Assembly: GCA_000091165.1 (NCBI GenBank)
Contig: FP565575.1
Span: 1,110,001-1,142,000, forward strand
Length of the DNA: 32,000 nt
Reading direction: 5' to 3'
From: Candidatus Methylomirabilis oxygeniifera
GTDB taxonomy: Bacteria > Methylomirabilota > Methylomirabilia > Methylomirabilales > Methylomirabilaceae
The translations under genes and the position numbers were made by a program. Numbering within the stretch: the first letter of the stretch is position 1; every line of letters starts with the position of its first letter. Below, one piece after another: positions 5,211 to 27,786 of this stretch. The notes under the pieces were generated by a model. That model did not search any database, had not been told where the DNA came from, and worked only from the letters and a program-made list of their open reading frames with translations.

Positions 5211-5211
5211 T

Positions 5212-7341
5212 TTATACCCCGCTCCACTTTACCGGAAGTTCAATGGTAAACTCCGTTCCCTGGCGATCTGGACTCGATACGCGGATGGTGCCGCCATGTT
5301 TTTGTATAATCCCATAGCTGATGCTGAGGCCCAGGCCCATCCCTTCCCCCACCTTCTTTGTGGTAAAGAAGGGATCAAAGATCTTCGACAGATTCGACTC
5401 AGGAATGCCGTGCCCGTTATCCCTGATGACGATGATGACCGTATCTCCATGGGAAGCCGTTCTGATCCAGACTTCTCCAGTCTCATGAATGGCTTGAGCG
5501 GCGTTGAGCAGCAGATTCATGAACACTTGATTGATCTGGCCAGGATGACATTCCACCTGAGGCAGGACTCCATACTCGCGATGGACAGTGATCCGATCTC
5601 TATACTCCTTTACAAGGAGGTTGAGGGTTATCTCAAGTCCTTCATGTAGATCGGCAGGCGCAGGATCGACATCATCCGCCCTGGCAAAGGTCCCGAGGTC
5701 CATGACAATTCTCTTTACCCGTTCTGTCCCCCGCTTGCAACTGGAAATCAACTCATCCAATGTATGAAGAGTCCGGTCGAGTCTGGCCCCTTTTTTCAGC
5801 TCTGCGAGATGCCGATAGGCGGGACTATCGGGCAGTTCGACCGTCTCATAGGCCTCAAGCACTCCTTTAAGGTTTAGAATATATTCGGCTATGAAATCGA
5901 TGTTACTATGGACGAAGCTGACGGGATTATTCAACTCATGAGCAACCCCCGCTACCAGAAATCCCAAAGAGGCCATCTTCTCCGTTTGGAGAAGCTCATT
6001 CTGGGTCTGGGCCAGCTCCTGGAGGGTCTTCTCCAACTCGTGATGCCCTTTTACCAGCTCTTCGTTTGTCGCAGCAAGTTGGGCGGTCCGCTCCTTGACC
6101 TTTTGGTCCAGCTCCCGGTTCATCGCCTCCAGGGCGAGACGTCGTTCCCGCTGGGCAGAGAAGACCTGAGCGATCAGATACCCGCCGTAGATCAGACCGA
6201 ACTGACCCGTGCCGGCGAAGACAGGAAGCCAAAGATTCCCTTTGACAAATAGCCCATATGCGACTACGAGAAAAAGCGCAGAAAGGCAGAGGAGCGCTCC
6301 GAGGGCCCAGAGCGGCTTGAGACGGAGGGCAATGACACTGCCGATCAGGGCCAAAAGAAAGAGGAGACTATACCGCACCCCTGAGGAGGGTTCGTGTACC
6401 ATCCGATCTGCCAAGAGGTTAGCGACGATCGTTGCATGGATCTCAACCCCGGCGGTGGGACCGCCTACGTGAAAGGAGAACGGAGTAGGGAAGACATCCG
6501 GAGAGGTTCGTTGCGGTTCCGGCGCCGCCTGGATGGCGCGGCCGATCAGGACAATCTTGTCGGAAAAGGTCCCCGGCGGAAGCATCCGATCAGCCTCGAG
6601 GGCCTGGTAGTAAGAGATCGTCTTGACGGTCCTTGGGGGACCAAAATAGTTGATCAGAATCGCCTTCGAGAGATCGGTCCGGATTCCATGCGGCTTCTGT
6701 CGTAGGTAGAACCTGACGATTTGATCGGAGAACGAGGGAAGGACGGAGGAGACGGGAAGGGGTCGTCTCACGGTCCCGTCAGGGTCGATGGGAAGGGTGG
6801 CGATTCCCACTGACGCGGCCGATCTGAAGGGTTCGATGGGATCGACAAGGATCGTCTGACGAAAGAGCGGATCAGCGGTGACGGACTGCTCGCTGGCGAG
6901 GACGACGTTTCCAGCCTCCCGAATGGCCCGTGCCAACGCCCGATCGTCCTCAGGCTGGGAAGGTTCTGCGAAGAGAATATCGAAGGCGATGACCCTGGCC
7001 CCCGCCTTCTTCAGGTGATCGATCAGGCGGGCATGAAGGCTCCGAGGCCAGGGCCACTGCTTCGAGATCTCGGCAAACGACGGCTCATCGATGGCGACAA
7101 CAACGACCTCAGGTGGAGGCGCCATGGCGCCACGGAGCATAAAAAGGAAGTCCAACCCTTTCAGCTCGAATAGGGAAAAGAGGGGGAGATTGGCTAGAAC
7201 GAGCATCACCGCAAAAGTCGGCATCACGATGAGGGCAGCTTGCAGCGCAGGCCACACTCGATCATTGCTGGCCACTAATATCCCCACATGGTCTACTCGA
7301 GTGAATGATGGCGCCCACATCACAGATGTGGGCGCCATCAT
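5212..7341 (-). CDS. CHASE2-domain sensor histidine kinase
   Basis: The N-terminal region is CHASE2-like ([10 protein letters not shown]...[29 protein letters not shown]), followed by TM segments and a coiled coil. Kinase motifs are the H-box [12 protein letters not shown]-box [10 protein letters not shown]1 DNGHGI and G2 GMGLGLSIS. The exact start is uncertain because there is no strong SD. Confidence 0.9.
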
Positions 7342-7469
7342 GGATGGGCATAAGTCGACATCGTTTGTGGACCATCATCTCACAGGAGGTGCGCAACCTG
7401 ATATATCTTAGCATTAGCGTCTACGTGGCTGTAGAGGGATAGACGAGCCCGAGAGGCCGACGGACGCGC

Positions 7470-7724
7470 CTACGGCTTAGGGAAACAGTACAATTTCCCG
7501 CCTTGAATGAGACAGATAGTAGGATTCGTGGTGGTAACAATGGTGACGCTGGTAATGTTCTCCACCGACTTGCCGTCCAGGTTAGCTCTCATGCCCTTCG
7601 GGATGTTTTCACCTTCCTTCTTTTCATGGTGAGGATGGATTACTCGACCCATCCCCTTACTGACGCCGCCCTCATAAACCTCGGTAATGTTTCCCTGGTT
7701 GTCGAACTCCACTGTGAATGCCAT
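7470..7724 (-). CDS. Small hypothetical protein (84 aa, C-terminal CxxxxxxxxC) between the barrel gene and the kinase gene
   Basis: The ATG at 7724 is preceded by AAGGGAG 8 nt upstream. The track ORF extends to a GTG at 7808, which sits directly on a GGAGG and so has no spacing. The protein has no signal peptide and no recognised family. Confidence 0.55.
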   Translation of the reverse strand: MAFTVEFDNQGNITEVYEGGVSKGMGRVIHPHHEKKEGENIPKGMRANLDGKSVENITSVTIVTTTNPTICLIQGGKLYCFPKP

Positions 7725-7849
7725 CTTTCTGCTCCCTTCTGCGTCCGCTGTGGTTGAATTAATCACCGCTTTTCCGTTTACGTTCCCCTTGGACACCGCG
7801 TACCTCACCTCCTTTCATTGCCGCCCCCGGATGGGCCTCAACATAACAG

Positions 7850-10800
7850 CTAAAACGCCACGGTCAACCGAAACAGGACCTGACGTTCTGGTGCTACCGT
7901 CGGACTACGAGGATCTGTATCCTGAAAGTGGAAGCGATTGTCGAACAGGTTTCTCACGTCGAGGGTGAGCAGGCCCCTTCGGTTAGGCAAGCGATAGCCG
8001 ATAGAAGCGTCAACGACCCAGAACCGATCGCTACCGGCCAGGACATCACCTGTAAGCCGATTCTGGAACTCTCCCTCCTGATCGACGTAGGTAGTTTTGA
8101 GCCGCGCCCGGAGGCCTGACGAGTGGAAGAAGCTCAATCCCAATGGAACCCGATGGGTATGGGTCATTGCTATTCCTTCCTCTCCAAACGCCACACGTCG
8201 CCTAAACCGTTCGTACTGATACTCGGCACTGATCGCAAGCCAGGCCCTTGGAGTCCAGTAGAGGTAGGCCCGTCCCAGGTCCTCTTCCCAGTCCCTGTCT
8301 CGATATTTCCCTTCCCCTGGTGCGAAGCCCGGCGCGTCGGTATCCCGCCGCGAAAACTCCGCCCCTCCAAACAGGGCCGTGGAGAGCTTCTGATCGACGG
8401 CAACACCGTACCGCCACGCTTCTGTGCCGTTCACGTCGTCAAAGAACTGATTGAAGCCGGCCACCTGGGTCGGCTCGATCGTTTGATCCGACAGGAGGGA
8501 TCGCTTCAGGACCCTGAAGACAGCGGCCCGCAGGGTTGTATCGGGAAACGGGTTCCAGGTTACCCCGAACTTCGGGTTGAACTGGTTTCGCTCGAGAACA
8601 GAAAGGACCTTTCGATCATCCTTGTTTCGGGTCGTAATCTTGAAGAAATCGGCGCTCCCGCCCAAGGTCCACGTAACATTATGCGGAAAGTTGATCAGGG
8701 AGTAGAGATAAAGATTGGTATGGCGATTATCATCTTCTGTCAGTGCTAAGGGGAATGACAGGAAACTGGTTACGTCCGTACGATCGGCGTCGAAATGACC
8801 GGCCCCGCTGATCAGATGTAATCGTTTCCAACGGAACAAATACTGAATCTCTCCCATGAAGCCGTCCGTGTCCGTCAAGAGGTCAAACCCCTTGACCATG
8901 AAGTTACGGGTGTCAAAATCAGCGTTTCGGTAGATGCCGGATGCGATAAGGTGAGAGTCGGGTGTAAAGGCATGATGAAGACCCAGTCGTATCGATCGGG
9001 TCCGATCATCCTGTTTTTGATCCGGAAAGAAATTGTTCCGATCGAATCGCAGCGGCAGGTCGCCTCGCTCAAAATCCTTGTATCTGAACTCTGCCTGGAC
9101 GCTGGTACTTGGCGAGAGGCTCATCTGGACAAAAGCGTTGTAGATGTCCTGGTTCTGGTCGTTATTTTTTCGGAATCCGTCGGTCTCCTGATGGAACTGG
9201 CCAAGACTATAGGAAACGTTTCCATGGACACCAGAGAGGACCACTTCATCACCAAGTGTGTCCTTTTCTCCAGCGGTTCCCGACGCCAGGAGGCTCACCC
9301 GATCGCGGACAAATAGAGGATTAAACTCATTCAACGAGGGATCTTGCGGCCCGGCACTGTCTAGAATAAAGAGATTGCTTTCCGCCAGTTGCGGCTGCAC
9401 CGGGGTAATGCTGATCGGTTGAAGAAGCTGGGACTGGAGCAGCTCACTCACCCTGGCGACCTCATGGCGAGGTAGGGCAGCATAGGAGTCAGACAGGAAC
9501 CGATGGGCCGAGTAGTTAGATGGATCCTCAATGGCTGCCTTCCATCCTTCAACTAACGCAAGCTGTTGGAATCCCAGCTCATTATACACTCTGGCAAGAG
9601 TCGCGCCCCGCGCCGCGAGATCCTGATCCATCAACAGGCGTGATCGGTAAACCGCACGATTGTCATTCAGCTCGATCGATCGCTGTAGATCCTGCATCGC
9701 CTCTACTGGACGGTTGACGCTTTGCTTGCGAATGGCGTCATAGAGCCATGGGGTGGGATCGTTCGGATCCAGTGTCTTGGCAATCGCCAAGGGATCCATC
9801 TCTAACGGATAACGTTTCACCTCGTAGAGCGCTTTCCCTAGATAGCTCCAGAATAAGGCAACTTTGGGCTCCAGGAGGGTAGCCATCCACATCTCCTGCA
9901 CTGCCTCCTCTGTCTTATTCTGCCTAAAAAGCGCGAGGCCGCGGCCGAGGTGAGGCTCTCCGCGCGTGGAATCCTGCTCAATCGCCTGGCCAAAGGCCGA
10001 GAGCGCTTCCTGGACCTTCCCCTGGGTCAACATGAGGAAGCCCCATGTGCTGGTGATAAGGGGATCGTGGGGTGCCCTTTGACGGGCCTCCTCAACCAGA
10101 CTTAATGCCTCGGAGAGCCTTCCGAGGCCAAAGAGGAGGCGGCTTACCTGGATCATGGCTACAGGGTTGTCCGGCTCCAACTCCAGTGCCTTCCTGGCGG
10201 CCTGAAGCGCTTCCTCCAGACGGAACTCGGCCTGCTTGACCAGGCTCAGGTCGAGATAGGCCGAGGCGGAGGACGGATTGGCGAGGATCGCCTGCAGCGC
10301 CGCTTGCTGCGCTACCCCCTTCTCGTTCCGAACCAGGGCAATATTGGAGCGAAGACCATGAGCCGGCGCGTAGCCTGGATCGAGGGCCACGGCATGCTCT
10401 AACTCCTGGAGCGCCTTGCCCACCCGGCCCTGAATGAGGTAGAGAAGAGCCGTCTGAGTCGGCGGCTGTGGGGAGGATGGGAAACGACTTTTGGCCTCAG
10501 CAACGACCTCTTCCATCTCATCAAAGCGATTAAGTCGATAGAGGGCGTTGGCCTGTCCCATAAGGGCTGAAAGGGTAGGAGGCGTCGCTTGCCGAAACGT
10601 TCTCAAGGCCTCCTCGGTCCTCCCTTCCACCAGGTAGACCCACCCCAGACCTGTGAGCGCCCTCGGGCTCCCCGGATCAAGGGTTAGGGCTTTCTCAAAT
10701 CCTCTTCGTGCCTCGACCGGTTTGCCCAGATCGAAGAGGATCTCGCCCAGCGTGACCGTCGACTCCGAATCCGCCAGTCTCGAAGCCGCCCTTCGTTCGG

Positions 10801-11512
10801 CGTCGACCAACCGTTCCGGGAGAAGATTCGGCGCGACGCCGGTCAGAGGATAATCCCGGAAGCCGACAATCCCGGGGTAGTAAAGGGACCATTGGACCGC
10901 ATCGATGGGCCTCAGGAGGATGGTCTTGCTTGGGGGTTCGCCTACCCTGGCCGTGGCCGCCTCTCCCGCCCTCACCATGACACCCCCCTGAGGATTGCGA
11001 AACTCAACCACCCCCTCGAGTACGGCAAGACGGGATTCATTGCCTGGATCGACCGAGAGGTCAAACTCCGTTCCCCGGATCGTTGCCGTCACCGCCGGCG
11101 TTCGAATCTGCAAGGGCCTGCCGCGACTTCGACTCCAGACCTCTCCCTTCAGCAGGTTGAGGATGGTCTGCATGGGGCCCGCCGCCGCACGGGTCGCGCT
11201 CCCGGGGGGCGACATGACCTCTGTAATCTCCAGGGTGCTGTTGGAATTGACCTTGATCTGTACTTCGTCCGAGAGGAGGATGGCCGCTCGACTTCCCGGA
11301 CCCGTCCTCACCACATCTCCAGGCATGAGGACGTGCCGGAGCGCTACCGGCTGCCACTGCTGGACCCGGAAGATCTCAACCCTTCCCACGACGCTCACAA
11401 TTCTCCCTGCTTCTTGGGCCGTTGCAACACTGATGCTCAACATAAGCCAGACGATCGAGCAGAGGAGGATGGGAAGGACTCCGCGCTGGGTTGGGACTTG
11501 GCGACAATTCAT
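7850..11512 (-). CDS. Secreted FecR-domain + TPR-repeat + C-terminal outer-membrane beta-barrel fusion protein (1220 aa)
   Basis: Signal peptide (LLCSIVWLMLSISVATA/QEAG). FecR-like N-domain (GRIVSVVGRVEI...PGDVVRTGPGSRAAILL...VKVNSNSTLEI). About 450 aa of TPR-like repeats follow (e.g. ALTLDPGSPRAL, ALELEPDNPVA, AIEQDSTRGEPHL). The C-terminal ~450 aa are rich in alternating beta-strand patterns and end in the OMP signature LFRLTVAF. GGGGAGG SD lies 9 nt upstream. Confidence 0.85.
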   Translation of the reverse strand: MNCRQVPTQRGVLPILLCSIVWLMLSISVATAQEAGRIVSVVGRVEIFRVQQWQPVALRHVLMPGDVVRTGPGSRAAILLSDEVQIKVNSNSTLEITEVMSPPGSATRAAAGPMQTILNLLKGEVWSRSRGRPLQIRTPAVTATIRGTEFDLSVDPGNESRLAVLEGVVEFRNPQGGVMVRAGEAATARVGEPPSKTILLRPIDAVQWSLYYPGIVGFRDYPLTGVAPNLLPERLVDAERRAASRLADSESTVTLGEILFDLGKPVEARRGFEKALTLDPGSPRALTGLGWVYLVEGRTEEALRTFRQATPPTLSALMGQANALYRLNRFDEMEEVVAEAKSRFPSSPQPPTQTALLYLIQGRVGKALQELEHAVALDPGYAPAHGLRSNIALVRNEKGVAQQAALQAILANPSSASAYLDLSLVKQAEFRLEEALQAARKALELEPDNPVAMIQVSRLLFGLGRLSEALSLVEEARQRAPHDPLITSTWGFLMLTQGKVQEALSAFGQAIEQDSTRGEPHLGRGLALFRQNKTEEAVQEMWMATLLEPKVALFWSYLGKALYEVKRYPLEMDPLAIAKTLDPNDPTPWLYDAIRKQSVNRPVEAMQDLQRSIELNDNRAVYRSRLLMDQDLAARGATLARVYNELGFQQLALVEGWKAAIEDPSNYSAHRFLSDSYAALPRHEVARVSELLQSQLLQPISITPVQPQLAESNLFILDSAGPQDPSLNEFNPLFVRDRVSLLASGTAGEKDTLGDEVVLSGVHGNVSYSLGQFHQETDGFRKNNDQNQDIYNAFVQMSLSPSTSVQAEFRYKDFERGDLPLRFDRNNFFPDQKQDDRTRSIRLGLHHAFTPDSHLIASGIYRNADFDTRNFMVKGFDLLTDTDGFMGEIQYLFRWKRLHLISGAGHFDADRTDVTSFLSFPLALTEDDNRHTNLYLYSLINFPHNVTWTLGGSADFFKITTRNKDDRKVLSVLERNQFNPKFGVTWNPFPDTTLRAAVFRVLKRSLLSDQTIEPTQVAGFNQFFDDVNGTEAWRYGVAVDQKLSTALFGGAEFSRRDTDAPGFAPGEGKYRDRDWEEDLGRAYLYWTPRAWLAISAEYQYERFRRRVAFGEEGIAMTHTHRVPLGLSFFHSSGLRARLKTTYVDQEGEFQNRLTGDVLAGSDRFWVVDASIGYRLPNRRGLLTLDVRNLFDNRFHFQDTDPRSPTVAPERQVLFRLTVAF

Positions 11513-19084: not shown

Positions 19085-19098
19085 GGATAGTGGAACGC

Positions 19099-21759
19099 AT
19101 GATGTCACGGTTGACAGGCGGAGAGATCCGCGAGCGATTCCTGCGCTTTTTTGAGCGGAATGGCCATACGGTGGTGGCCAGTTCGTCATTAGTCCCGGCC
19201 GGCGATCCGACACTGCTCTTCACCAATGCCGGGATGGTACCGTTTAAGGGGGTCTTTCTGGGGACCGATCCGCGTCCCTACCGGCGCGCCGTCTCTATTC
19301 AAAAGTGTTTGCGCGTCAGCGGTAAACATAACGATCTGGAGAATGTCGGTCGAACCGCCCGTCACCATACCTTCTTTGAGATGCTCGGCAATTTCTCGTT
19401 CGGCGATTACTTCAAGGAGGGCGCCATTGAATATGGCTGGGCGTTCCTGACGTGCGAGCTGGAGCTGCCTGCGGATCGGCTGTGGGCCACCATTTATAAA
19501 GATGACGATGCGGCGGGCGAACTGTGGCAGCGGCTGACCGGACTGCCGTCTGATCGCATCGTTCGCCTGGGGGAAAAAGATAATTTCTGGTCGATGGGCG
19601 AGACCGGTCCATGCGGGCCCTGCTCCGAGTTGATCTTCGACCAGGGTCCGACAATCGGGTGCGGACGGCCGACCTGTACTATTGAGTGCGGGTGCGATCG
19701 ATATCTTGAGCTGTGGAACCTGGTATTCATGCAGTTCAATCGCGACGCCTCAGGAACCCTCACGCCGCTCCCGAAGCCGAGTATCGACACGGGAGCCGGA
19801 TTGGAGCGGATGGCCGCGGTGTGCCAGGGAGTCACGAGTAATTTTGAGAGCGACCTGATCCGCCCGCTGATCGCAACGGTAGAGGAGCTGTCGCAGAAGC
19901 GTTACGGGGCGGACGAGAAGGATGATATATCGATGCGGGTCATCGCCGATCACGCGAGGGCGGTGACCTTCGCGTTGGCCGACGGTGTGTTGCCCAGCAA
20001 CGAAGGGCGAGGCTACGTGCTACGTCGGATCCTCCGGCGCGCGCTTCGACATGGTCGGCTCCTCGGACTGGATGAGCCGTTCCTGGCCTCCACGACCCAC
20101 AGGGTGATCGACCTGATGACGGACGCCTATCCGGAGCTTCCGGCCAGCAGGGCGCATGTCGAGCGTCTCGCCTGGATCGAGGAGGACCGCTTCGGCATTG
20201 TGCTGCGCGAGGCGCTGCCCCGACTGCATGACCTGATCGAGAAGATCAAATCCCAGACAGCGGAGCAGGCCATCCTTCCAGGGTCAAAGCTTTTTGAGCT
20301 GTACGATACATATGGAGTACCGCGCGACCTGATCGATGAGATCGCCGTTGAGCAGTCGGTCGGATGCGATTGGAACGGATTCGAGATCGAGTTGAGACAC
20401 CAGAGGGAAACGTCACGGGCGCATCTGAAAGCGTTCGGGGACGTTCAGGGGGTTGCAGAAGCGTTTCACGACCTTGTGAAGACGAGGCGAACAGTGTTCC
20501 TGGGCTATGAGCGTCTCGATCTGGAGGCGTCGGTAGTTGCGGTCATCGTTGGCGGCACACAGGTCGATCGGATGGGTGTGGGACAGGAAGGCGAGGTTGT
20601 CCTTGACCAGACTCCGTTCTATGCCGAATCCGGTGGACAGGTGGGTGATGCCGGATATCTTCGAGGCGATGGAGTCCTTGCGGAGGTCCTGGATACGAAA
20701 CGGCCGTTGGCCGGATTGATCGTCCACCGTGTTCGAGTGAAGCGAGGCGAGTTCAGGAGTGGCCAGCGACTCCTTGCCTCGGTTGAGGCTGATCGGCGCA
20801 GTACGACGGTCAAGAACCACACAGCAACCCACCTCGTCCACGCGGCTCTGCGACAGATCCTTGGCGATCATGTGCGACAGGAAGGCTCGTTGGTTGCGCC
20901 GGATCGCTTGCGCTTTGACTTTCGCCACTATGGGCCGGTGAGTCCCGCCGAGATCACTCAGATCGAAGAGATGGTCAATGCGAAGCTCTGGGCGAACGTG
21001 CCCGTGGTGGTCGAAGAGATGCGGCTGGATGAGGCGCTGGCGAAAGGCGCCCTGGCCTTCTTCGGCGACAAGTACGGGGATGAGGTGCGGGTGGTCGGCG
21101 TCGCCGATTTCAGTATTGAGCTGTGCGGAGGGACGCATACCAAGTCGACGGGGGAGATCGGTCTGTTGAAGATCGCGCATGAGACAGGCGTGGCCGCCGG
21201 CATACGCCGGATTGAGGCCTTGACCGGCCCAGGCGCCTTTCAGTACCTCAAGCGCGAGGGAGAGGTCCTGCGGGAATCGGCCGATCGATTGAAAAGTAAG
21301 CCGCTTGAGGTTCCCGAAAAGGTTGAGCGCCTCTTTGATTCGGCGCGCGCCTTCGAACGCGAGGTCCAGCGGTTGCGCGCCAAGTTGGGCGCAGAAATGG
21401 CGGAGGAGTTGCTGAACAAGGCAACCCGGGTCTCCGGTGTCATGGTGGTGGCGGGCCTAGTGGAGCAGTGTGATCAGCGGGCGCTACGGGAACTCGTCGA
21501 TCGAGTCAAGACGAAGATCGAGAGTGGAGTTATCGTTCTGGCAACGTCCCTGGACGGACGGGTAGGCTGGGTAGCAGCCGTGACGCCGGACCTTACCTCT
21601 CGACTGCACGCCGGAAAATTGGTGAAGGAAGTCGCAAATATCACCGGGGGGAGCGGCGGTGGCAGGGCTGATCTCGCCGAAGCCGGCGGGAAAAACCTCG
21701 ATGAGTTGGATCGAGCGCTTCAGCTTGTCCCGGAGTTGGTCAAACAGGCTCTCGCATGA
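19099..21759 (+). CDS. alaS: Alanine--tRNA ligase
   Basis: IRERFLRFFERNGHTVVASSSLVP, TNAGMVPFK, HHTFFEMLGNFSFGDYFK, and the editing-domain motifs HTATHLVHAAL and CGGTH. The ATG start at 19099 is chosen over the GTG at 19090. Confidence 0.97.
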   Translation: MMSRLTGGEIRERFLRFFERNGHTVVASSSLVPAGDPTLLFTNAGMVPFKGVFLGTDPRPYRRAVSIQKCLRVSGKHNDLENVGRTARHHTFFEMLGNFSFGDYFKEGAIEYGWAFLTCELELPADRLWATIYKDDDAAGELWQRLTGLPSDRIVRLGEKDNFWSMGETGPCGPCSELIFDQGPTIGCGRPTCTIECGCDRYLELWNLVFMQFNRDASGTLTPLPKPSIDTGAGLERMAAVCQGVTSNFESDLIRPLIATVEELSQKRYGADEKDDISMRVIADHARAVTFALADGVLPSNEGRGYVLRRILRRALRHGRLLGLDEPFLASTTHRVIDLMTDAYPELPASRAHVERLAWIEEDRFGIVLREALPRLHDLIEKIKSQTAEQAILPGSKLFELYDTYGVPRDLIDEIAVEQSVGCDWNGFEIELRHQRETSRAHLKAFGDVQGVAEAFHDLVKTRRTVFLGYERLDLEASVVAVIVGGTQVDRMGVGQEGEVVLDQTPFYAESGGQVGDAGYLRGDGVLAEVLDTKRPLAGLIVHRVRVKRGEFRSGQRLLASVEADRRSTTVKNHTATHLVHAALRQILGDHVRQEGSLVAPDRLRFDFRHYGPVSPAEITQIEEMVNAKLWANVPVVVEEMRLDEALAKGALAFFGDKYGDEVRVVGVADFSIELCGGTHTKSTGEIGLLKIAHETGVAAGIRRIEALTGPGAFQYLKREGEVLRESADRLKSKPLEVPEKVERLFDSARAFEREVQRLRAKLGAEMAEELLNKATRVSGVMVVAGLVEQCDQRALRELVDRVKTKIESGVIVLATSLDGRVGWVAAVTPDLTSRLHAGKLVKEVANITGGSGGGRADLAEAGGKNLDELDRALQLVPELVKQALA

Positions 21760-21767
21760 GTCTATTC

Positions 21768-21775
21768 CGGAATCC
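21768..21775. repeat. Target-site duplication, left copy (CGGAATCC)
   Basis: It is identical to 26963-26970 and directly abuts the terminal inverted repeat. It could be 9 bp (CGGAATCCG) because of a 1-nt boundary ambiguity. Confidence 0.75.
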
Positions 21776-21794
21776 GGTAGTGGGTCAGTTTGAA
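21776..21794 (+). repeat. Left terminal inverted repeat (IRL)
   Basis: GGTAGTGGGTCAGTTTGAA is the exact reverse complement of 26944-26962. Confidence 0.85.
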
Positions 21795-21805
21795 ATAAGC
21801 GAACC

Positions 21806-21834
21806 TTGACAGCAAGTGTTGACATCCCTATACT
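21806..21834 (+). promoter_or_regulatory. Sigma70-type promoter TTGACA-17-TATACT driving a leaderless mRNA
   Basis: The -35 TTGACA is at 21806-21811, followed by a 17-nt spacer and the -10 TATACT at 21829-21834. The ATG at 21841 begins 7 nt after the -10 and has no SD. Confidence 0.5.
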
Positions 21835-21840
21835 CAGGGT

Positions 21841-22086
21841 ATGCCTAAGCGCACAAGCAAGAAGCCGCCCTCTGATATTAACCTGCTCGCCGTCTCAGTC
21901 GTTCAGGCGGCAACCGGAGAGAAACCCGCTAGTGAGAGCATCCCGCAAAAGAACCCTGCCGCTGTAGCCCTGGGTCGATTGGGTGGGCTGAAGGGTGGGA
22001 AGGCCAGGGCCAAGAAACTCTCTGCGAAGACAAGATCATTAATCGCCAAGAAAGCCGCGAAGGCCCGTTGGGCTAGACAGAAGTAG
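21841..22086 (+). CDS. Small, highly basic hypothetical protein (81 aa)
   Basis: The C-terminal motif is NPAAVALGRLGGLKGGKARAKKLSAKTRSLIAKKAAKARWARQK. It is the first gene inside IRL and has a consensus promoter immediately upstream. Confidence 0.55.
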   Translation: MPKRTSKKPPSDINLLAVSVVQAATGEKPASESIPQKNPAAVALGRLGGLKGGKARAKKLSAKTRSLIAKKAAKARWARQK

Positions 22087-22198
22087 CTTTTCTATGTCAT
22101 AAGTGACAAGCGGCGGACATCTCAACAACGGAGAAGATTCTGAGCTTTTAGAAAGGATTTTTGATTTTAGGATTTATCTACTTGGTTCCCCTTGATCC

Positions 22199-22843
22199 CT
22201 ATAAGGTGACGACCCGCCACGCCGCCTTTTGGTGCAAAGCAGAGAACGATAACCGAACCCGGAAGTCCTCGCCGAGGGTGGGTGCGTTGCGGCCGACCCT
22301 CCAAATGGTATCGTTTTCGTCCGGGTTGTATTGATCTTGAAACACCCCGCTTGGGATACAAGCTATCTTTATCTGCTTCAGCAACGACCCCTTCCCATCG
22401 CCCTTGTAAATGTATTTAACGACTATTGTCACCGTCTGCATCTTCACGCCAGACCTTTCAATGAAGGTCGGCAAGCCGCCCTTAACTTTTTCGACCTTTC
22501 CAGCCCTGTGCTGCCGCACTTCCATTGACGTTTGCGACATCTGAATCGTGGCTGTGTTACCGTCCTTTTCAGCCTTCGAGTCAATCATTAAGGCAACTTC
22601 CGTTTCTCTATCTGGCAGAAACACGAGAGCGGCCCGTTTATAATCGATTTTTCCGTACAGGCGGATATGCACTCGTGAAAGTCCGAGGAAATCTAACGCC
22701 TCCCGGGTAATGTCTTCTGCAACATCAGCGGCCAGATCAGTTTCCTCGCGGAATATTTTGACCGCCTCTTTGTGATAGTCGCGGATCGCCCGAACAACCA
22801 GGCGAAGGCACGAGCGTTCTACCTCCTCAATCTGAATCTGCAT
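22199..22843 (-). CDS. Putative type II restriction endonuclease (PD-(D/E)XK candidate)
   Basis: It lies immediately downstream of the methyltransferase and overlaps it. A candidate catalytic motif is FLPD-x9-DSK. The start is uncertain: ATG at 22843 or TTG at 22867. No family recognised by eye. Confidence 0.6.
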   Translation of the reverse strand: MQIQIEEVERSCLRLVVRAIRDYHKEAVKIFREETDLAADVAEDITREALDFLGLSRVHIRLYGKIDYKRAALVFLPDRETEVALMIDSKAEKDGNTATIQMSQTSMEVRQHRAGKVEKVKGGLPTFIERSGVKMQTVTIVVKYIYKGDGKGSLLKQIKIACIPSGVFQDQYNPDENDTIWRVGRNAPTLGEDFRVRLSFSALHQKAAWRVVTL

Positions 22844-23843
22844 TTTCACGGGTTCTGGATTCTGCAAGCTTGGTGTATTTTTTCAGCCTATCAATTCCGA
22901 TGTATTTGCGCTTCAGTTTGTGCGCCATCCTGGTCGTGGTCCCCGACCCAACGAACGGATCAATCACAACGTCGCCAGGATCGGAGAACAAACGGATAAC
23001 GCGCTCTGCCAGCATCTCTGGAAACTCGCACTCATGGCGTCCGTTCCTTTGGACTGACCGTATGTTCCAGACGCCCCTCGATCCCCATTCAGCCCATTCA
23101 TTCTTCTTGAGGCGATTACGGTCAACGTCAATTATCCCCGGTTTCCAGAATACGTACAGGTATTCAAACTCATCCACCGCACGGTAAGAATTGCTGTGCC
23201 ATCGGCTATTGGCCCAACAAGGGTCTTTGTGCCAGATGCGGCGGTCATAGAGATATAGACCGACCGACTCAGCCCATCCCTGCAATAGACCTCCGACGAC
23301 AAACACCTTTGTCCCAGCCTCATACTTGCCGCCGCGCACGTTGTTATGTTCCGCACGGCGCTGAATGGTTTGCTCGCTGCACCCGAACAGCTTCGCCAAC
23401 TCATAACGGCTTGCCTTCGGATGCTTCTTCATTGCGGCAAGCACGTCTTCCCGCGTGATGGCAATCTTCTTGTTGCTGATGTTATTTGCCATGTAACGCG
23501 GCATCTCTGTGTCGGTGAAGCAAAGAATGTCGCTGATATTAATCACCATGAAGGAGCCGGACTTCATGACACGCGCATGCTCCACGATTACGCCGCGCAG
23601 AAGTTCTTGCCACTGCTGGAAAGTAAGGTGTGCCTCGTAATTCTTGCCAACGAAGTACGGCGGAGACCAAAAACTCAAATCTATGCTTGCTGCTGGAAAC
23701 GACCGCAGCACAGCAATGGAATCGCCTGTGTAAATTCTGTTGACGTGGTTTTCGTCGGCGAGTAGTTGGGCTTTCGCTGCTGTTGGCCTGCATGCCAACA
23801 CAACGTCAGTAATCGCATTTAGAGCAGCTAACTCACTCCTCAT
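22827..23843 (-). CDS. Beta-class N4-cytosine/N6-adenine DNA methyltransferase (N6_N4_Mtase type)
   Basis: Motif IV SPPY (DLSFWSPPYFVG) precedes motif I (VVIDPFVGSGTTTRMA), which is the beta-class order. An HTH-like insertion (ASRYELAKLFGCSEQTIQRRA) lies between them. Confidence 0.92.
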   Translation of the reverse strand: MRSELAALNAITDVVLACRPTAAKAQLLADENHVNRIYTGDSIAVLRSFPAASIDLSFWSPPYFVGKNYEAHLTFQQWQELLRGVIVEHARVMKSGSFMVINISDILCFTDTEMPRYMANNISNKKIAITREDVLAAMKKHPKASRYELAKLFGCSEQTIQRRAEHNNVRGGKYEAGTKVFVVGGLLQGWAESVGLYLYDRRIWHKDPCWANSRWHSNSYRAVDEFEYLYVFWKPGIIDVDRNRLKKNEWAEWGSRGVWNIRSVQRNGRHECEFPEMLAERVIRLFSDPGDVVIDPFVGSGTTTRMAHKLKRKYIGIDRLKKYTKLAESRTRENADSD

Positions 23844-24013
23844 GAGGTCAACTCACAATAAGTGGTCCGACTCCCAACCGTTGCATCTACGAAGCTGCCT
23901 AGCCTCTTCAAAGTATAATACAATATATTACCATCATTTATGCGAAAGATAAATTCATCGATTAGAGATTTGATCGTGGAGAGAAATTGTGCAGTGAAGA
24001 GCTTGTCTGCCAT
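23840..24013 (-). CDS. Possible 57-aa ORF translationally coupled to the methyltransferase
   Basis: Its stop TGA overlaps the methyltransferase ATG (ATGA), and the methyltransferase itself lacks an SD. The sequence is AT-rich and no family is recognised. Confidence 0.3.
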   Translation of the reverse strand: MADKLFTAQFLSTIKSLIDEFIFRINDGNILYYTLKRLGSFVDATVGSRTTYCELTS

Positions 24014-24197
24014 GCCTTTACACCTTGTTTTAGCTTTCTGAATAGGAGAGGAATCGTCCCACAAGCTCAAGCGTGCATATCAAGCGGTTTTTGAAGCTGG
24101 GAGGGGGGATTACGAGTAGTGAAGAAATAACTAGACAGATGGGCAGTATTATGTCATTTTACTTAACATGCAACCTGAGTAAAGGGAGGAGATCAAA

Positions 24198-24821
24198 ATG
24201 GCAATATCGGCTACTGAGCTTGCGCGGATCTTCGATGGTTCTGTTTCAAGGCAGATTCAAGAAGCGTTGGTCAGGTGTGTCTTTGGCAGCTACCGGACAG
24301 CCCACGATGAGTGCTCGGGATTCCCTGGTGAAGAAGCTCATGACCTACTCCCCTATTACCGATGGATTCAGCTTCGCTCAGATTTACGAGGAATGACCAA
24401 TCGCTTTGATGGTGTTCACGCTAGCGCTGAACGTTACCATACGCTCCTCCATGTTGGACGGATCTTACTCACAGCTCAACGCGTTGACGGGCCTGAAGGA
24501 TTAGTGCGTCCATCAGTTTACCGACTGGCTTATGCGGCCAGCAGTCAATTGGAACTCTTTGAACAGAACACGCCGCCGCCGGATGACGCCTTATTCTACG
24601 CCATCCTACTGCATGGTCCTGATCCGCGAGAAGCGAAGCAGCCGCTCTTTGCTCAAATCGCATTCCCAGACAAAACCCTTCAGTCCTACGTTCACAAGAT
24701 TGATCTGTTTTCCAGATTTGAACCCGTAATCGACAGCCTTCGCATTGCTCATGAAGAGGGCGGAGGCCAAGATGTGACTATCCAACTCCGCAAGGCGGCC
24801 AAAAAGCAAAACGTGTCATGA
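24198..24821 (+). CDS. Hypothetical 207-aa protein, first gene of a two-gene module
   Basis: A strong SD (GGGAGGAG) lies 7 nt upstream of the ATG. Its stop overlaps the next gene's start (ATGA). No recognisable motifs. Confidence 0.75.
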   Translation: MAISATELARIFDGSVSRQIQEALVRCVFGSYRTAHDECSGFPGEEAHDLLPYYRWIQLRSDLRGMTNRFDGVHASAERYHTLLHVGRILLTAQRVDGPEGLVRPSVYRLAYAASSQLELFEQNTPPPDDALFYAILLHGPDPREAKQPLFAQIAFPDKTLQSYVHKIDLFSRFEPVIDSLRIAHEEGGGQDVTIQLRKAAKKQNVS

Positions 24822-26050
24822 AGCCCGGGACGCCAGGATTCAACGGCGCCAGACTGCGCGAGGCGCGTGAGGCAAGAGGTCTGCCAGCTATAGCGTTGGC
24901 TGATCTCATCGGGGTCACTCGTGCTGCTGTTTCTCAGTATGAGAATAGTGTTCAAACGCCGCGACCAGAAGTTATGGAAAAGATCGCCAGAACGTTGCAG
25001 CTTCCTCAAGAGTATTTCCGCCGACCAATAAGTCGGATCGAGAGAGGAGCCATTTTCTATCGGTCCATGAGTGCTGCCACCAAGGCGGCGAGAGCACGAG
25101 CCGAATGTCGCTATTCTTGGTTGCGGGAGATCGTAACCTATCTGAGAGAATTTGTGCAATTCCCTCCCATGAATATTCCAGATTTCAATTTGCCAGATGA
25201 TCCGGTCCGAATCTCTTACAACCAAATAGAAGAACTTGCTACGCAGAGCAGACAATTTTGGAAGATCGGTGAAGGGCCGATAGGCAATGTGGTTAGGCTT
25301 CTCGAAAACAACGGTATCGTTGTGGTCCGCGACGAACTTGGGGCTGAAACCCTCGATGCTTTCTCTGAGTTCAATGCTGAGGATGGAACGCCATACATTA
25401 TCCTGGGCTCGGATAAAGCCGTGGCGGTACGATCTCGTTTTGATGCTGCCCATGAACTTGGCCACCTTATCCTCCATCGGAACATCAACAAGAATCGTCT
25501 TTCTCGACCGACCGATCATCAGCTAATCGAGACACAAGCCCATAGGTTCGCTGGAGCCTTCCTGCTGCCAGGGCAAGCATTCGCAAGCGAATTTTACTCA
25601 GCAAACCTTGATGCACTCAGGATCTTAAAGCCGAAATGGAAGGTCTCAATTGCTATGATGGTCAAGAGAGCCGAGGATTTGGAGTTTATATCATCTGAGC
25701 AGGCTAAACGCTTATGGATAAATTATTCGCGTCGCCGATGGAGAGCAAAAGAACCTCTCGACGGCGAACTCGAAGTTGAGCAGCCCCGTCTATTGGTTCG
25801 AGCATTTGAATTACTCCTCAACGAGGGGATTCAAACGTGCGAACAGATCCTTTCTCATTTACCACTCAACCCAAATGATATTGAAGCCTTGGCTACTCTA
25901 TCAGGCCAGCTTACCAAGACGTCTGCCGATGAACCCTCAGTGCGTGTTCTTGATTTGACTGGCCGCACTCGCCAAAAAAGCCAGCACCAGATCGATAAGC
26001 CAGGACAAGTCATACAATTTGCAGCCCGGAAACCGCATCCAACTGGTTAG
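24818..26050 (+). CDS. XRE-family HTH fused to an ImmA/IrrE-type (M78, COG2856) zinc metallopeptidase domain
   Basis: The N-terminal HTH is LREAREARGLPAIALADLIGVTRAAVSQYENSVQTPRPEVMEKIARTL. An HEXXH motif occurs in RSRFDAAHELGHLILH. About 150 aa of C-terminal extension follow. Confidence 0.9.
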   Translation: MKPGTPGFNGARLREAREARGLPAIALADLIGVTRAAVSQYENSVQTPRPEVMEKIARTLQLPQEYFRRPISRIERGAIFYRSMSAATKAARARAECRYSWLREIVTYLREFVQFPPMNIPDFNLPDDPVRISYNQIEELATQSRQFWKIGEGPIGNVVRLLENNGIVVVRDELGAETLDAFSEFNAEDGTPYIILGSDKAVAVRSRFDAAHELGHLILHRNINKNRLSRPTDHQLIETQAHRFAGAFLLPGQAFASEFYSANLDALRILKPKWKVSIAMMVKRAEDLEFISSEQAKRLWINYSRRRWRAKEPLDGELEVEQPRLLVRAFELLLNEGIQTCEQILSHLPLNPNDIEALATLSGQLTKTSADEPSVRVLDLTGRTRQKSQHQIDKPGQVIQFAARKPHPTG

Positions 26051-26087
26051 ATAGGCAAGAAAAATGGTTCCTGGGGTTATTTCTCTC

Positions 26088-26116
26088 TTGACATGCTTGA
26101 CCGCTCAAGCTATATT
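26088..26116 (+). promoter_or_regulatory. Sigma70-type promoter TTGACA-17-TATATT driving a leaderless transposase mRNA
   Basis: The -35 TTGACA is at 26088-26093, followed by a 17-nt spacer and the -10 TATATT at 26111-26116. The ATG at 26123 is 7 nt after the -10. This is the same layout as the promoter at 21806. Confidence 0.5.
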
Positions 26117-26122
26117 ATAAGT

Positions 26123-26953
26123 ATGAACAGATTGAGTAAGGACAAGCGAGCACAAGTGGTAGCCGCCCTAGTCGAGGGCAACTCGATTCGGTCCACCGTC
26201 CGCATGACGGGCGTCGCCAAAGGCACGGTCTTGAAGCTACTGGCCGATCTCGGAGCGGCCTGTAGTGAATATCAGCGGCAAGTCCTTGTGAATCTTCGTT
26301 GCAAGCGGATTCAGTGTGATGAGATCTGGTCCTTCTGTTATGCCAAGGAAAAGAACGTCCCTGAGCACATGAAGGGCAAACCCGGAGTCGGCGACGTGTG
26401 GACCTGGACGGCTATGGATGCTGACTCAAAGCTAATGATCTCATGGTTGGTAGGCGAACGTGATGCAGGATACGCCACTGAGTTTATCAATGACCTCGCC
26501 GCACGGCTCGCCACTCGGGTTCAACTCACCACGGATGGTCTGAAGGTTTATCTGGAGGCTATAGAGGGTGCTTTTGGGGCCGACATTGATTATGCCCAAC
26601 TGGTGAAACTGTTTGGAGAGGCACCCGAGCAAGAGAAGCGGTACAGCCCGTCTCAGTGCACCGGATGCCAGAAGAGGCGCATTGATGGGAGTCCTGATCC
26701 TCGGCACGTCTCGACATCGTTTGTGGAGCGACAGAATTTAACCATGCGAATGAGCATGAGAAGGTTCACACGGCTTACCAATGCGTTTTCAAAGAAGGTC
26801 GAAAACCTGGAAGCCGCCGTAGCCCTTCACTTCATGTGGTACAACTTCGGGAGAATCCACCAAACCCTTCGAGTGACCCCGGCGATGCAAGCAGGAGTTT
26901 CCGACCATGTATGGACAATCGAGGAGATTTTAGACTTATTGGATTCAAACTGA
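26123..26953 (+). CDS. IS1-family DDE transposase (single fused ORF)
   Basis: N-terminal HTH (GNSIRSTVRMTGVAKGTVLKLL). The DDE context is CDEIWSF, TTDGLKVY and FVERQNLTMRMSMRRFTRLTNAFSKK. This parallels the IS1 InsB motifs DEMW / TDGW / [24 protein letters not shown]. Confidence 0.9.
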   Translation: MNRLSKDKRAQVVAALVEGNSIRSTVRMTGVAKGTVLKLLADLGAACSEYQRQVLVNLRCKRIQCDEIWSFCYAKEKNVPEHMKGKPGVGDVWTWTAMDADSKLMISWLVGERDAGYATEFINDLAARLATRVQLTTDGLKVYLEAIEGAFGADIDYAQLVKLFGEAPEQEKRYSPSQCTGCQKRRIDGSPDPRHVSTSFVERQNLTMRMSMRRFTRLTNAFSKKVENLEAAVALHFMWYNFGRIHQTLRVTPAMQAGVSDHVWTIEEILDLLDSN

Positions 26954-26962
26954 CCCACTACC
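26944..26962 (-). repeat. Right terminal inverted repeat (IRR)
   Basis: TTCAAACTGACCCACTACC is the exact reverse complement of IRL. It contains the transposase stop codon at 26951-26953. Confidence 0.85.
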
Positions 26963-26970
26963 CGGAATCC
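26963..26970. repeat. Target-site duplication, right copy (CGGAATCC)
   Basis: It is identical to 21768-21775 and directly abuts IRR. Confidence 0.75.
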
Positions 26971-27030
26971 GTTTCCCTTGCAGATCGCCGCCGGCCATGA
27001 TAGAAATGAAGAGAATGACCGTCACGACAC

Positions 27031-27147
27031 AGGCAGATAGACTGAAGGCTGAAGGCTTTTAGGGGTAAGGCGGTGATCACACAGCACTTCCGGCACGTGA
27101 TTTGCGCACGACGAGGTAATATATTGTCTTCAACTTTTGGCCTACAC
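27031..27147 (+). repeat. Intergenic ~115-nt repeat element, copy B (upstream of psd)
   Basis: In AGGCAGATAGACTGAAGGCTGAAGGCTTTTAGGGGTAAGG, 34 of the first 37 nt are identical to 17339-17375. The interior (CGAGGTAATATAT vs CGAGATACGATAT) and the 3' block (GTCTTCAAC..CCTACAC) are also related. Confidence 0.55.
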
Positions 27148-27159
27148 GTCTAAAGAGCG

Positions 27160-27786
27160 ATGATACCGGTTGCGCGCGAGGGGTGGCCATTTATCCTCCC
27201 ACCGTTGATCGTGGCTGCCAGCCTGTGGGTTGCGGGATGGCAGGTCAGCAGCGTTGTGACATGTGTGCTGGCCGTATTGGTGGCCCTGTTTTTCCGTGAC
27301 CCGCCACGCGATATTCCGAAGGGCGAGGGGCTGATTGTCGCCCCCGCCGATGGTGCTGTTGTCCAGGTCACCCAGTATCTTGGTCAGGAGTTGCAAGAGC
27401 CGGCCACCCAGATCAGCATCTTCCTGTCGGTTCTTGATGTGCATATCAACCGCGCCCCATTTCCCGCGGTAGTCGAAGAGGTGACGTACAGACCAGGGAC
27501 GTTTCGAATCGCATGGCAGCCCGAGGCATCGGTAGACAACGAACAGAATCTCATTGCGCTGAAGGCGCCGAAAGGGCGACTGCTGGTCAAACAGATCGCG
27601 GGCCTCATCGCCAGACGTATCGTCTGTCGGGTGGTTCCCGGACAAAAGCTTGAGGCCGGAGAGCGGATCGGGATGATTCGATTCGGATCGCGCGTGGATC
27701 TCATTGTCCCGGCGCGCGCCGAACTGTTCGTGAAACGTGGAGATCGCGTGAAGGGAGGAACCACTGTGATGGGAGCGCTTCGATGA
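27160..27786 (+). CDS. psd: Phosphatidylserine decarboxylase proenzyme (short form)
   Basis: 208 aa with the self-cleavage FGSR motif (IGMIRFGSRVDLIVP). Its stop overlaps the pssA start (ATGA). Confidence 0.92.
   Translation: MIPVAREGWPFILPPLIVAASLWVAGWQVSSVVTCVLAVLVALFFRDPPRDIPKGEGLIVAPADGAVVQVTQYLGQELQEPATQISIFLSVLDVHINRAPFPAVVEEVTYRPGTFRIAWQPEASVDNEQNLIALKAPKGRLLVKQIAGLIARRIVCRVVPGQKLEAGERIGMIRFGSRVDLIVPARAELFVKRGDRVKGGTTVMGALR

Follow-up and report, generated by a model that had tools for sequence, protein, structure and literature searches.

We analysed a 32-kb window of the Candidatus Methylomirabilis oxyfera genome (32,000 nucleotides of contig FP565575.1; all coordinates are positions in this window, and L-numbers label loci retrieved for comparison) and found that the segment at 21776-26962 is very probably one transposable unit, a transporter insertion sequence (tIS) of the IS1 family. 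Two gene pairs unrelated to transposition, one for restriction-modification (R-M) and one of the Rosmer type, lie between its left inverted repeat (IRL) and its single transposase gene (tnp), and the outer ends of the inverted repeats (IRs) delimit 5187 bp. IRL (GGTAGTGGGTCAGTTTGAA, 21776-21794, forward strand) is 19 bp long and carries the IS1-type tip GGTnnTG, while the right repeat (IRR, 26944-26962, reverse strand) is its exact complement and encloses the transposase stop codon (26951-26953). At up to three mismatches these are the only two matches to the repeat in the window, and 100 shuffles gave none. The 8-bp target-site duplication CGGAATCC lies directly outside both IRs, at 21768-21775 and 26963-26970, and the chance of 8/8 identity at these fixed positions is ~1.5e-5. 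The open reading frame (ORF) of alaS (19090-21759) ends 8 nt before the left duplication, which places the insertion just 3' of this gene. The composition of the element is foreign to its surroundings, with ~50% G+C compared with ~60% on both flanks, and we counted this in favor of a mobile unit. The perfect repeats, the duplication, the length and the insertion point given in the initial annotation of this DNA were thus reproduced.

If the whole segment had been inserted as one piece, then removing it together with one copy of the duplication should restore a site that related lineages still carry. The window without the element and without one CGGAATCC reads ...GCATGAG-TCTATTCCGGAATCC-GTTTCCCTTGCAG..., and this restored site aligns colinearly and without a gap to L141, L133 and L136 (...GCATGAG-CCCATCGTGGACTCC-ATTTCCCTTGCAG...). 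Since the relatives are colinear with the restored window, the empty-site prediction holds; an empty allele of the M. oxyfera locus would read GAGTCTATTCCGGAATCCGTTTCCC. The sample for this comparison consisted of psd loci from metagenomes, ten contigs of which held both alaS and psd. In all ten, which come from related lineages (AlaS C-terminus 80-93% identical, Psd 75-89% identical), alaS is directly followed by psd across a gap of 101-225 bp that holds no transposase. Cargo genes standing at this locus without IRs would have spoken for a different origin, and the related genomes show the empty alaS-psd junction instead. The insertion itself was present in three independent M. oxyfera assemblies (L001-L003). 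A duplication lying outside both IRs and a site that is empty in ten related contigs demonstrate that 21776-26962 moved as a whole, as the initial annotation had proposed. By analogy with IS1 biology, the single-ORF DDE transposase encoded at the right end would recognize both 19-bp IRs, and it would have moved all DNA between them into the alaS-psd intergenic region while duplicating 8 bp of the target.

Further copies were collected in two ways, by exact matches to the 19-mer and by tracing close homologues of the transposase. Thirteen transposase-bearing elements had both ends and an 8-bp duplication, namely the window element, L008, L009, L004, L018, L027, L052, L094, L114, L042, L073, L216 and L219; twelve of the duplications were perfect and one, in L004, matched at 7/8 positions. 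The closest transposase homologues (80-96% identity) belong to elements that are bounded by an identical or near-identical 19-mer, each with an 8-bp duplication of its own, and the 19-mer is identical at the ends of L004, L008, L009, L216 and L219. L009 (5130 bp, duplication ACCTCGCC) contains the same gene set as the window element at a different site: orf81 (a small conserved gene described below), an SfiI-type methyltransferase and endonuclease on the other strand, and RmrT/RmrA. The cargo of the other copies was different. L008 (5671 bp, CGTATCGC) carries a Panacea toxin-antitoxin (TA) system, a MunI-type R-M system that includes a C protein, and a divergent RmrA pair; L004-L007 (2783 bp, TATTTTT(T/C)) a DUF3467 protein and a HigB/Gp49 plus helix-turn-helix (HTH) pair; L216-L218 (2397 bp, CAAAAAGG) a Fic protein; and L219 (2418 bp, CAAAGCTG) a HicB-like protein. 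Seven further transposase-bearing elements of 2.1-4.4 kb, with transposases 59-69% identical to that of the window, were flanked by perfect duplications.

The 19-mer extends far beyond these copies. In a scan for exact matches with one genome per species it was found in at least 120 genome stretches, which represent about 10 phyla. Among the matches listed, the hosts were Acidobacteriota, Actinomycetota, Alpha- and other Pseudomonadota, Planctomycetota, Chloroflexota, Nitrospirota, Gemmatimonadota, Verrucomicrobiota and others, with Mesorhizobium, Methylobacterium, Methylorubrum, Mycobacterium and Tunturibacter as cultured representatives. The genome loci are fixed 8-kb blocks, and the many loci showing a single IR were counted neither for nor against. 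The loci listed contained 53 IR pairs spanning 68 bp (MITE-like, that is resembling miniature inverted-repeat transposable elements) to 4.6 kb; 19 of these pairs had perfect 8-bp repeats and 28 had repeats with at most one mismatch, and three duplications look 7 bp long. A 19-mer that was merely a common genomic repeat would have undermined the initial annotation. Because it bounds many duplication-flanked units, it is the conserved terminus of a widespread insertion sequence (IS) group and not a chance or generic repeat.

Several of these loci deserve a separate remark. The L008 element (5203-10873 of Methylomirabilis_oxyfera_contig_159, ENA ERZ24907703) comes from the same M. oxyfera assembly as L003, and its additional TA-like pair, an 88-aa (amino acid) ORF and a SocA_Panacea protein, lies between IRL and the orf81 promoter, so that a second slot is also open to cargo. 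Short IR pairs lacking any ORF measured 68 bp in L017, L046, L077 and L119 and 119-185 bp in L021, L023, L026, L043, L099 and L120, with others reaching ~800 bp. Several have perfect 8-bp duplications, the 68-bp form recurs across genomes, and the pairs are derivatives of this IS group, non-autonomous and MITE-like. Two IR-bounded units had genes and no transposase. The one in L092 (5914-6989, 1076 bp, duplication 7/8) carries orf81 alone. The one in L107 (3828-5835, 2008 bp, perfect duplication GCGCTTCG) contains ORFs for a MerR-like regulator and for two proteins that we guessed from their N-terminal sequence to be flavin reductases, and it resembles a mobile insertion cassette whose cargo is unrelated to defence.

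The insertion could be real and yet old, the element having become a fixed, immobile chromosomal defence islet. We regard this as unlikely. It would agree with the presence of the insertion in all M. oxyfera assemblies retrieved, with the lack of an empty-site allele within the species among those assemblies, and with the fact that just two related elements were found in the M. oxyfera genome. A relic would not, however, be expected to have IRs matching at 19/19 positions, a duplication matching at 8/8, and an intact transposase ORF that keeps its promoter and its D, D and E-region motifs, nor would the site be expected to be empty in the closest other lineages (AlaS C-terminus up to 93% identical). 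Perfect ends, an intact transposase and an empty site nearby point instead to a recent and probably still competent element.

The cargo of the window element comprises four recognizable genes. An SfiI-like type II restriction endonuclease of 222 aa (22199-22867, reverse strand; PF11487, 2.7e-53) aligned to SfiI residues 12-235 of 269 in PDB entry 2EZV and keeps the catalytic-type motif IDYKR...IDSK, although its C-terminus falls 47 aa short of that of SfiI. The ORF next to it, overlapping by 41 nt, encodes an N4/N6 DNA methyltransferase of 338 aa with an SPPY motif (22827-23843, reverse strand; PF01555, 3e-42; PADLOC MTase_II, 6.7e-127). Fold, motif and adjacent methyltransferase together specify an SfiI-like type II system, which gives a more precise identity to the R-M pair of the initial annotation. 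On the forward strand, a 207-aa RmrT-like toxin gene (24198-24821) overlaps by 4 nt the gene for a 410-aa RmrA antitoxin (24818-26050). RmrA matched the PADLOC model over its full length (4.1e-141) and has an N-terminal HTH fused to an ImmA/M78 peptidase (PF01381 and PF06114); it also matched the NCBIfam spr1629 family (3.3e-68, 230.5 bits, under the model's cut-off of 335 bits). The 207-aa ORF matched RmrT models weakly (5e-9 to 5e-7; 5.4e-9 for PADLOC RmrT). Rosmer systems consist of a variable upstream toxin, with diverse RmrT families, and an HTH-ImmA/M78 RmrA, and their anti-phage activity has been demonstrated (PMC10440598). The pair that was initially described as an unknown protein with an XRE-M78 partner therefore has the Rosmer architecture, with an overlapping candidate toxin gene, whose RmrT match is weak, upstream of an HTH-ImmA antitoxin.

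A further small ORF (23840-24070, reverse strand, 57-76 aa) had no family match. Its stop overlaps the methyltransferase start by 4 nt, and it lies in the most AT-rich part of the element (44-47% G+C). Among the three assemblies with gene calls, L001 and L003 list it at 57 aa and L002 does not. The ORF might encode a regulator of the controller type for the R-M operon, or it might not be a gene. A 23-nt inverted repeat (87% complementary) links 23910-23932, in the divergent promoter region between the R-M and Rosmer genes, to 27115-27137 outside the element and just upstream of psd; both arms are AT-rich and promoter-like, and the pairing is probably due to chance.

The position of the RmrA-type pair raises the question of whom it serves. 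It could be the element's own regulatory or stabilizing module, an ImmR/ImmA-like stress switch or a TA system, and not mainly a host defence. In the window, L009, L008, L018, L114 and L222, an HTH-M78 protein or a related HTH protein of ~350-410 aa stands with a small partner directly upstream of tnp, and these proteins kept their position even though they are very divergent (27% identity or no match). ImmA has been described as the anti-repressor of a mobile element (PMC10440598), and TA pairs next to the transposition module of Tn3 transposons have been proposed to secure establishment (PMC7157771). Such a pair is nevertheless missing from L004, L216, L219, L094 and L073, it lies on the opposite strand in L018, L114 and L222, and Rosmer has experimentally demonstrated anti-phage activity (PMC10440598). 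We therefore find a dedicated module of the element quite improbable. As cargo of a tIS, the genes would most likely help the element in two ways, with post-segregational addiction stabilizing it and phage defence favoring hosts that keep it.

The space between orf81 and tnp, which we call the bay, was filled with different genes in the relatives. PD-Lambda-2_B-like HTH proteins with small partners were found in L018, L114 and L222 (a M. loti plasmid), a HEC-04/Gabija-like ATPase with a GNAT and a DUF3892 protein in L073, a STAND/AAA NTPase in L042, and an HTH protein with a DUF6941 protein in L027. Nested IS5- and Mutator-type IS occupy the bays of L052 and L037, and several bay ORFs have no known domain. 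Recognizable defence or TA-type genes were present in ~2/3 of bays, a plain count over a small, non-random sample. Cargo also lies beyond the bay in some members, since 0.5-3 kb separates the transposase stop from the far IR in L073, L042, L114, L124 and L037; the L042 transposase is itself interrupted.

Comparison of the window element with L009 and L008 separated backbone from cargo. Between the window and L009, identity was 93% for the transposase, 89% for orf81, 86% for RmrA and 76% for RmrT, and it fell to 55% for the methyltransferase and 46% for the endonuclease, whose cassette is inverted. Between the window and L008, the transposase and orf81 remained at 92% and 85% identity, while RmrA was 27% identical and RmrT gave no match. 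These unequal identities indicate that the backbone stayed conserved while modules gave way to distant functional analogues. Repeats at the borders of the R-M cassette, sought as a trace of capture, were not found, and no dedicated capture site or mechanism was visible at the cassette borders. The simplest reading is that cargo was exchanged through ordinary recombination between backbones, with breakpoints at functional borders.

We assigned the family of the element from its transposase, its ends and its target duplication. The transposase is encoded by a single ORF (26123-26953, forward strand, 276 aa). Gene callers used an ATG at 26093 (286-aa version), which falls inside the -35 box of the tnp promoter and is unlikely to be used. 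The protein scored 25.3 bits with Pfam PF03400 (DDE_Tnp_IS1; cut-off 24.1) and 52 bits (8.1e-14) with NCBIfam NF033558 (transpos_IS1), below the equivalog cut-off of 100. BLASTP against IS1A InsAB' gave 22% identity over 231 columns (E 2e-6); the reference was a PGAP-annotated copy from E. coli (L211), with InsAB' rebuilt across the A6C frameshift site. The alignment is colinear through the InsA helix-turn-helix, the two D regions and the ERxNLxxR...FSK segment. It begins at InsA residue 55, the window protein having no Cys-rich N-terminus. Databases name >8000 homologues 'IS1 family transposase', a name that both PGAP and JGI use. IS1 has a target duplication of 8-9 bp and terminal GGnnnTG, and here we found 8 bp in the window and in the 12 other bounded transposase-bearing elements, and the tip GGTAGTG, with GGTGATG in IS1A (L211).

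Resemblance to IS1A thus covers a colinear DDE transposase, GGTnnTG ends, an 8-bp duplication, MITE-like derivatives, and a first gene just inside IRL whose promoter abuts the IR. Classical IS1, in contrast, has insA and insB' joined by a programmed -1 frameshift, an N-terminal zinc finger, and a length of ~0.7-1.2 kb without passengers (0.77 kb for IS1A). The window element has a single ORF with no -1 frameshift and no zinc finger, a spacing from the second D to the E that is longer by ~40 residues, a first gene unrelated to insA, a transposase with its own promoter, and 5.2 kb with a cargo bay and four passenger genes. The transposase is a distant, single-ORF member of the IS1 family and not a classical IS1; presumably it belongs with the 'single-ORF' IS1 relatives that ISfinder treats as a subgroup. 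In the IS1A copy used for comparison (L211 756-1453, E. coli SK1144) we read CAEMGEQW, whereas we take canonical IS1 to read CAEMDEQW with the first D of the DDE triad, so that L211 may be a variant or inactive copy; this residue has no bearing on the comparison.

The low scores with IS1 models, and the existence of 8-bp duplications and of tIS in the IS1-related IS1595 family (10.1101/2021.05.26.445724), could be taken to place the element in IS1595. This assignment is very unlikely, given that no IS1595 model in Pfam or NCBIfam matched at E<=0.01, that the best match in both was IS1, and that the protein is colinear with IS1A InsAB' including the InsA-type HTH, with a GGTnnTG tip and the IS1 naming by PGAP and JGI.

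Only two conserved parts are common to the compared elements, as judged from pairwise blastn (four elements) and from alignments that covered four or five. The left module consists of IRL, about 10 variable nt, the promoter CTTGACA-17-TATACT and an 81-aa ORF, and similarity stops ~25 nt past the stop of this ORF. The right module begins at 26086 with TCTTGACATGCTTGACCGCTCAAGCTATATT, is invariant in five elements from that position, and continues through the transposase to IRR. The order throughout the element family is IRL, promoter, orf81, variable bay, promoter, tnp and IRR. The orf81 promoter (21806-21834, forward strand, TTGACA-17-TATACT), kept in L009, L004 and L008, and the tnp promoter (26086-26122, forward strand, TTGACA at 26088, 17-nt spacer, TATATT at 26116) are the only two sequences in 21600-27300 that match the promoter consensus at 11/12 positions. 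The spacer of the tnp promoter contains the invariant palindrome GCTTGAccgcTCAAGC (26095-26110), which may be an operator. Since the -10 boxes end 6 nt before the ATG in both cases (21841 and 26123), both genes are probably transcribed as leaderless mRNAs. Five distant members (L114, L027, L049, L018 and L125) have a partial IR core, CAAACTGAC, in IRR orientation at a conserved position ~10 nt upstream of the tnp -35 box; this core may be a transposase-binding operator, and the window's subgroup lacks it and has the palindrome instead.

The initial gene list stands (a small basic ORF, the R-M pair, the unknown/XRE-M78 pair and the transposase), except that the small basic protein had been counted as a passenger. 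This gene, orf81 (21841-22086, forward strand, 81 aa), belongs to the backbone of the IS group. Homologues were found by tblastn at ~35 loci, in most of them within ~100 bp of an IR, and those adjoining IRL include distant elements with transposases just 56-69% identical; extra DNA separates orf81 from the nearest IR in a few loci (L008, L066, L081 and L111). A census of the distance between orf81 and tnp, made with composition-based statistics off, covered 20 elements with both genes. The nearest to empty bays were 360 bp in L056 and 463 bp in L037, the rest measured 935-4039 bp, and the window had the largest. The orf81 family has ~7,900 database homologues, labelled 'hypothetical' or 'histone H1' and none with a Pfam domain. 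Its alignment shows two conserved blocks, with 26 of 81 columns invariant. Comparison with Pfam and PDB sequences gave no match; an AlphaFold model with three helices had a predicted template modelling score (pTM) of 0.29, and its fold search gave no match; and profile comparison with IS1 InsA revealed no similarity. The gene is the first inside IRL and its promoter starts 11 nt from the IR, the position that insA holds in IS1. By analogy of position, orf81 may encode a DNA-binding regulator or cofactor.

The two-module backbone also bears on the ancestry suggested initially, which would make the element a decayed composite transposon: a minimal ~0.9-kb IS (26066-26962) whose degenerate IRL is the string GGTTCCTGGGGTTATTTC at 26066-26083, with an outer IRL and promoter recruited from a second copy. 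This history is scarcely credible, since the GGT...TGGG...ATTT string, although it does occur ~40 nt before the transposase start, agrees with the IR at about 7/19 ungapped positions, lies outside the right module (conservation starting at 26086) and is absent from L008, L004 and L130; since the CAAACTGAC core just upstream of the tnp promoter in some distant members has the orientation of IRR, not IRL, and is absent from the window; since IRL, promoter and orf81, the standard left module of the whole group, are present in every well-bounded relative including the near-empty L056 and L037; and since no ~0.9-kb IS with IRL abutting tnp occurred among the relatives. With one transposase, two IR copies at up to three mismatches and an unconserved internal IR-like string, the composite transposon was rejected.

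Some findings weigh against the reading of 21776-26962 as an IS1-family tIS with defence cargo. The transposase lies below the NCBIfam equivalog cut-off for IS1 (52 compared with 100 bits) and has neither the zinc finger nor the frameshift of IS1, the RmrT match is weak (5e-9), and orf81 matched no function in Pfam, PDB, fold and InsA profile searches. Repeats that might point to a route of cargo entry are absent from the cassette borders. A search among the collected relatives for a cargo-free copy of ~0.9-1.2 kb found none; the frequency of such forms is poorly estimated, because the relatives were sampled through the 19-mer and close homologues and each genome locus spans 8 kb. The shortest contigs (L130 with 1168 bp) contain the shared right module together with other cargo. 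Transposition in the present host and the defence activity of the cargo are both predictions from sequence.

The tIS is an established category defined by Siguier and Chandler (PMC3129680, PMC7986276), with examples such as ISNha5 and ISNwi1+/ISPna2+ of the IS1595 family and tIS of the IS66 family (PMC3129680, PMC11891212, 10.1101/2021.05.26.445724). Documented passengers are regulators, methyltransferases and resistance genes (PMC11891212). The window element resembles these in its IS-type ends, its single transposase and the passengers that move along inside the IRs. It differs in belonging to the IS1 family and in carrying complete defence/TA systems, which occupy a defined slot with a conserved accessory gene on one side and tnp on the other. 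Within IS1, the ISfinder subgroup ISMhu11 presumably reaches 4.6 kb. Tn7-like transposons are vehicles for a changing defence repertoire (PMC8649781), and Tn3-family transposons have TA modules right beside their transposition genes (PMC7157771), so that a transposon carrying defence systems, or TA genes next to transposition genes, has precedents. Those are, however, multi-gene machines (TnsABCD/E in Tn7-like elements, TnpA and a resolvase in Tn3) of many kb to tens of kb, while the present IS group has one transposase, 1.5-5.7 kb, and no resolvase or targeting proteins.

Our search, confined to the literature, found no account of an IS1-type tIS lineage that combines a conserved accessory protein with defence cargo. 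The group is widespread and apparently undescribed, and its members share identical ends, orf81 and a swappable cargo slot. The individual element joins the established tIS kind; what the lineage adds is the invariant end, orf81, a rarely empty bay rich in defence and TA genes, MITEs and spread across phyla. No new principle is involved, and the group is seemingly an overlooked defence shuttle, compact and widespread, with an uncharacterized conserved protein. More tentatively, one might see in it a cross-phylum IS1 lineage that is a dedicated defence/TA shuttle, with a near-invariant 19-bp end, a two-module backbone, a rarely empty bay, leaderless genes usable in any host, and an orf81 product that replaces InsA as an essential end-binding cofactor or regulator; this fuller picture is possible, and we do not favor it as it stands. 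Leaderless expression, if true, would suit a host range across phyla.

By moving one R-M and one Rosmer pair together, this 5.2-kb IS shows that complete anti-phage systems can be transported by very small single-transposase elements, between chromosomes and plasmids and across many phyla, a role so far documented mainly for large transposons, integrons, integrative and conjugative elements, phages and satellites. In annotation, the 19-bp signature makes it possible to recognize thousands of 'IS1 family transposase' and 'hypothetical / histone H1' pairs, together with their intervening DNA, as single mobile units. With the same signature, candidate defence or TA genes can be collected from the bays in a simple way, and several of these genes lack any known domain. 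The comparison also defines a strongly conserved IS accessory protein and a natural cargo vector of broad host range, and in M. oxyfera it identifies two recently acquired defence islets.

The surroundings of the insertion gave three minor observations. A Logan contig of the alaS-psd locus breaks at the equivalent of window position ~26114, where repetition of the right module in the sample would lead one to expect a break. No terminator lies between the transposase and IRR, so that read-through from the tnp promoter into psd/pssA is possible. Just 3' of IRR, within 26971-27159, lies a psd promoter-like sequence, TTGCAG...GATAGAAAT, that is kept in the relatives.

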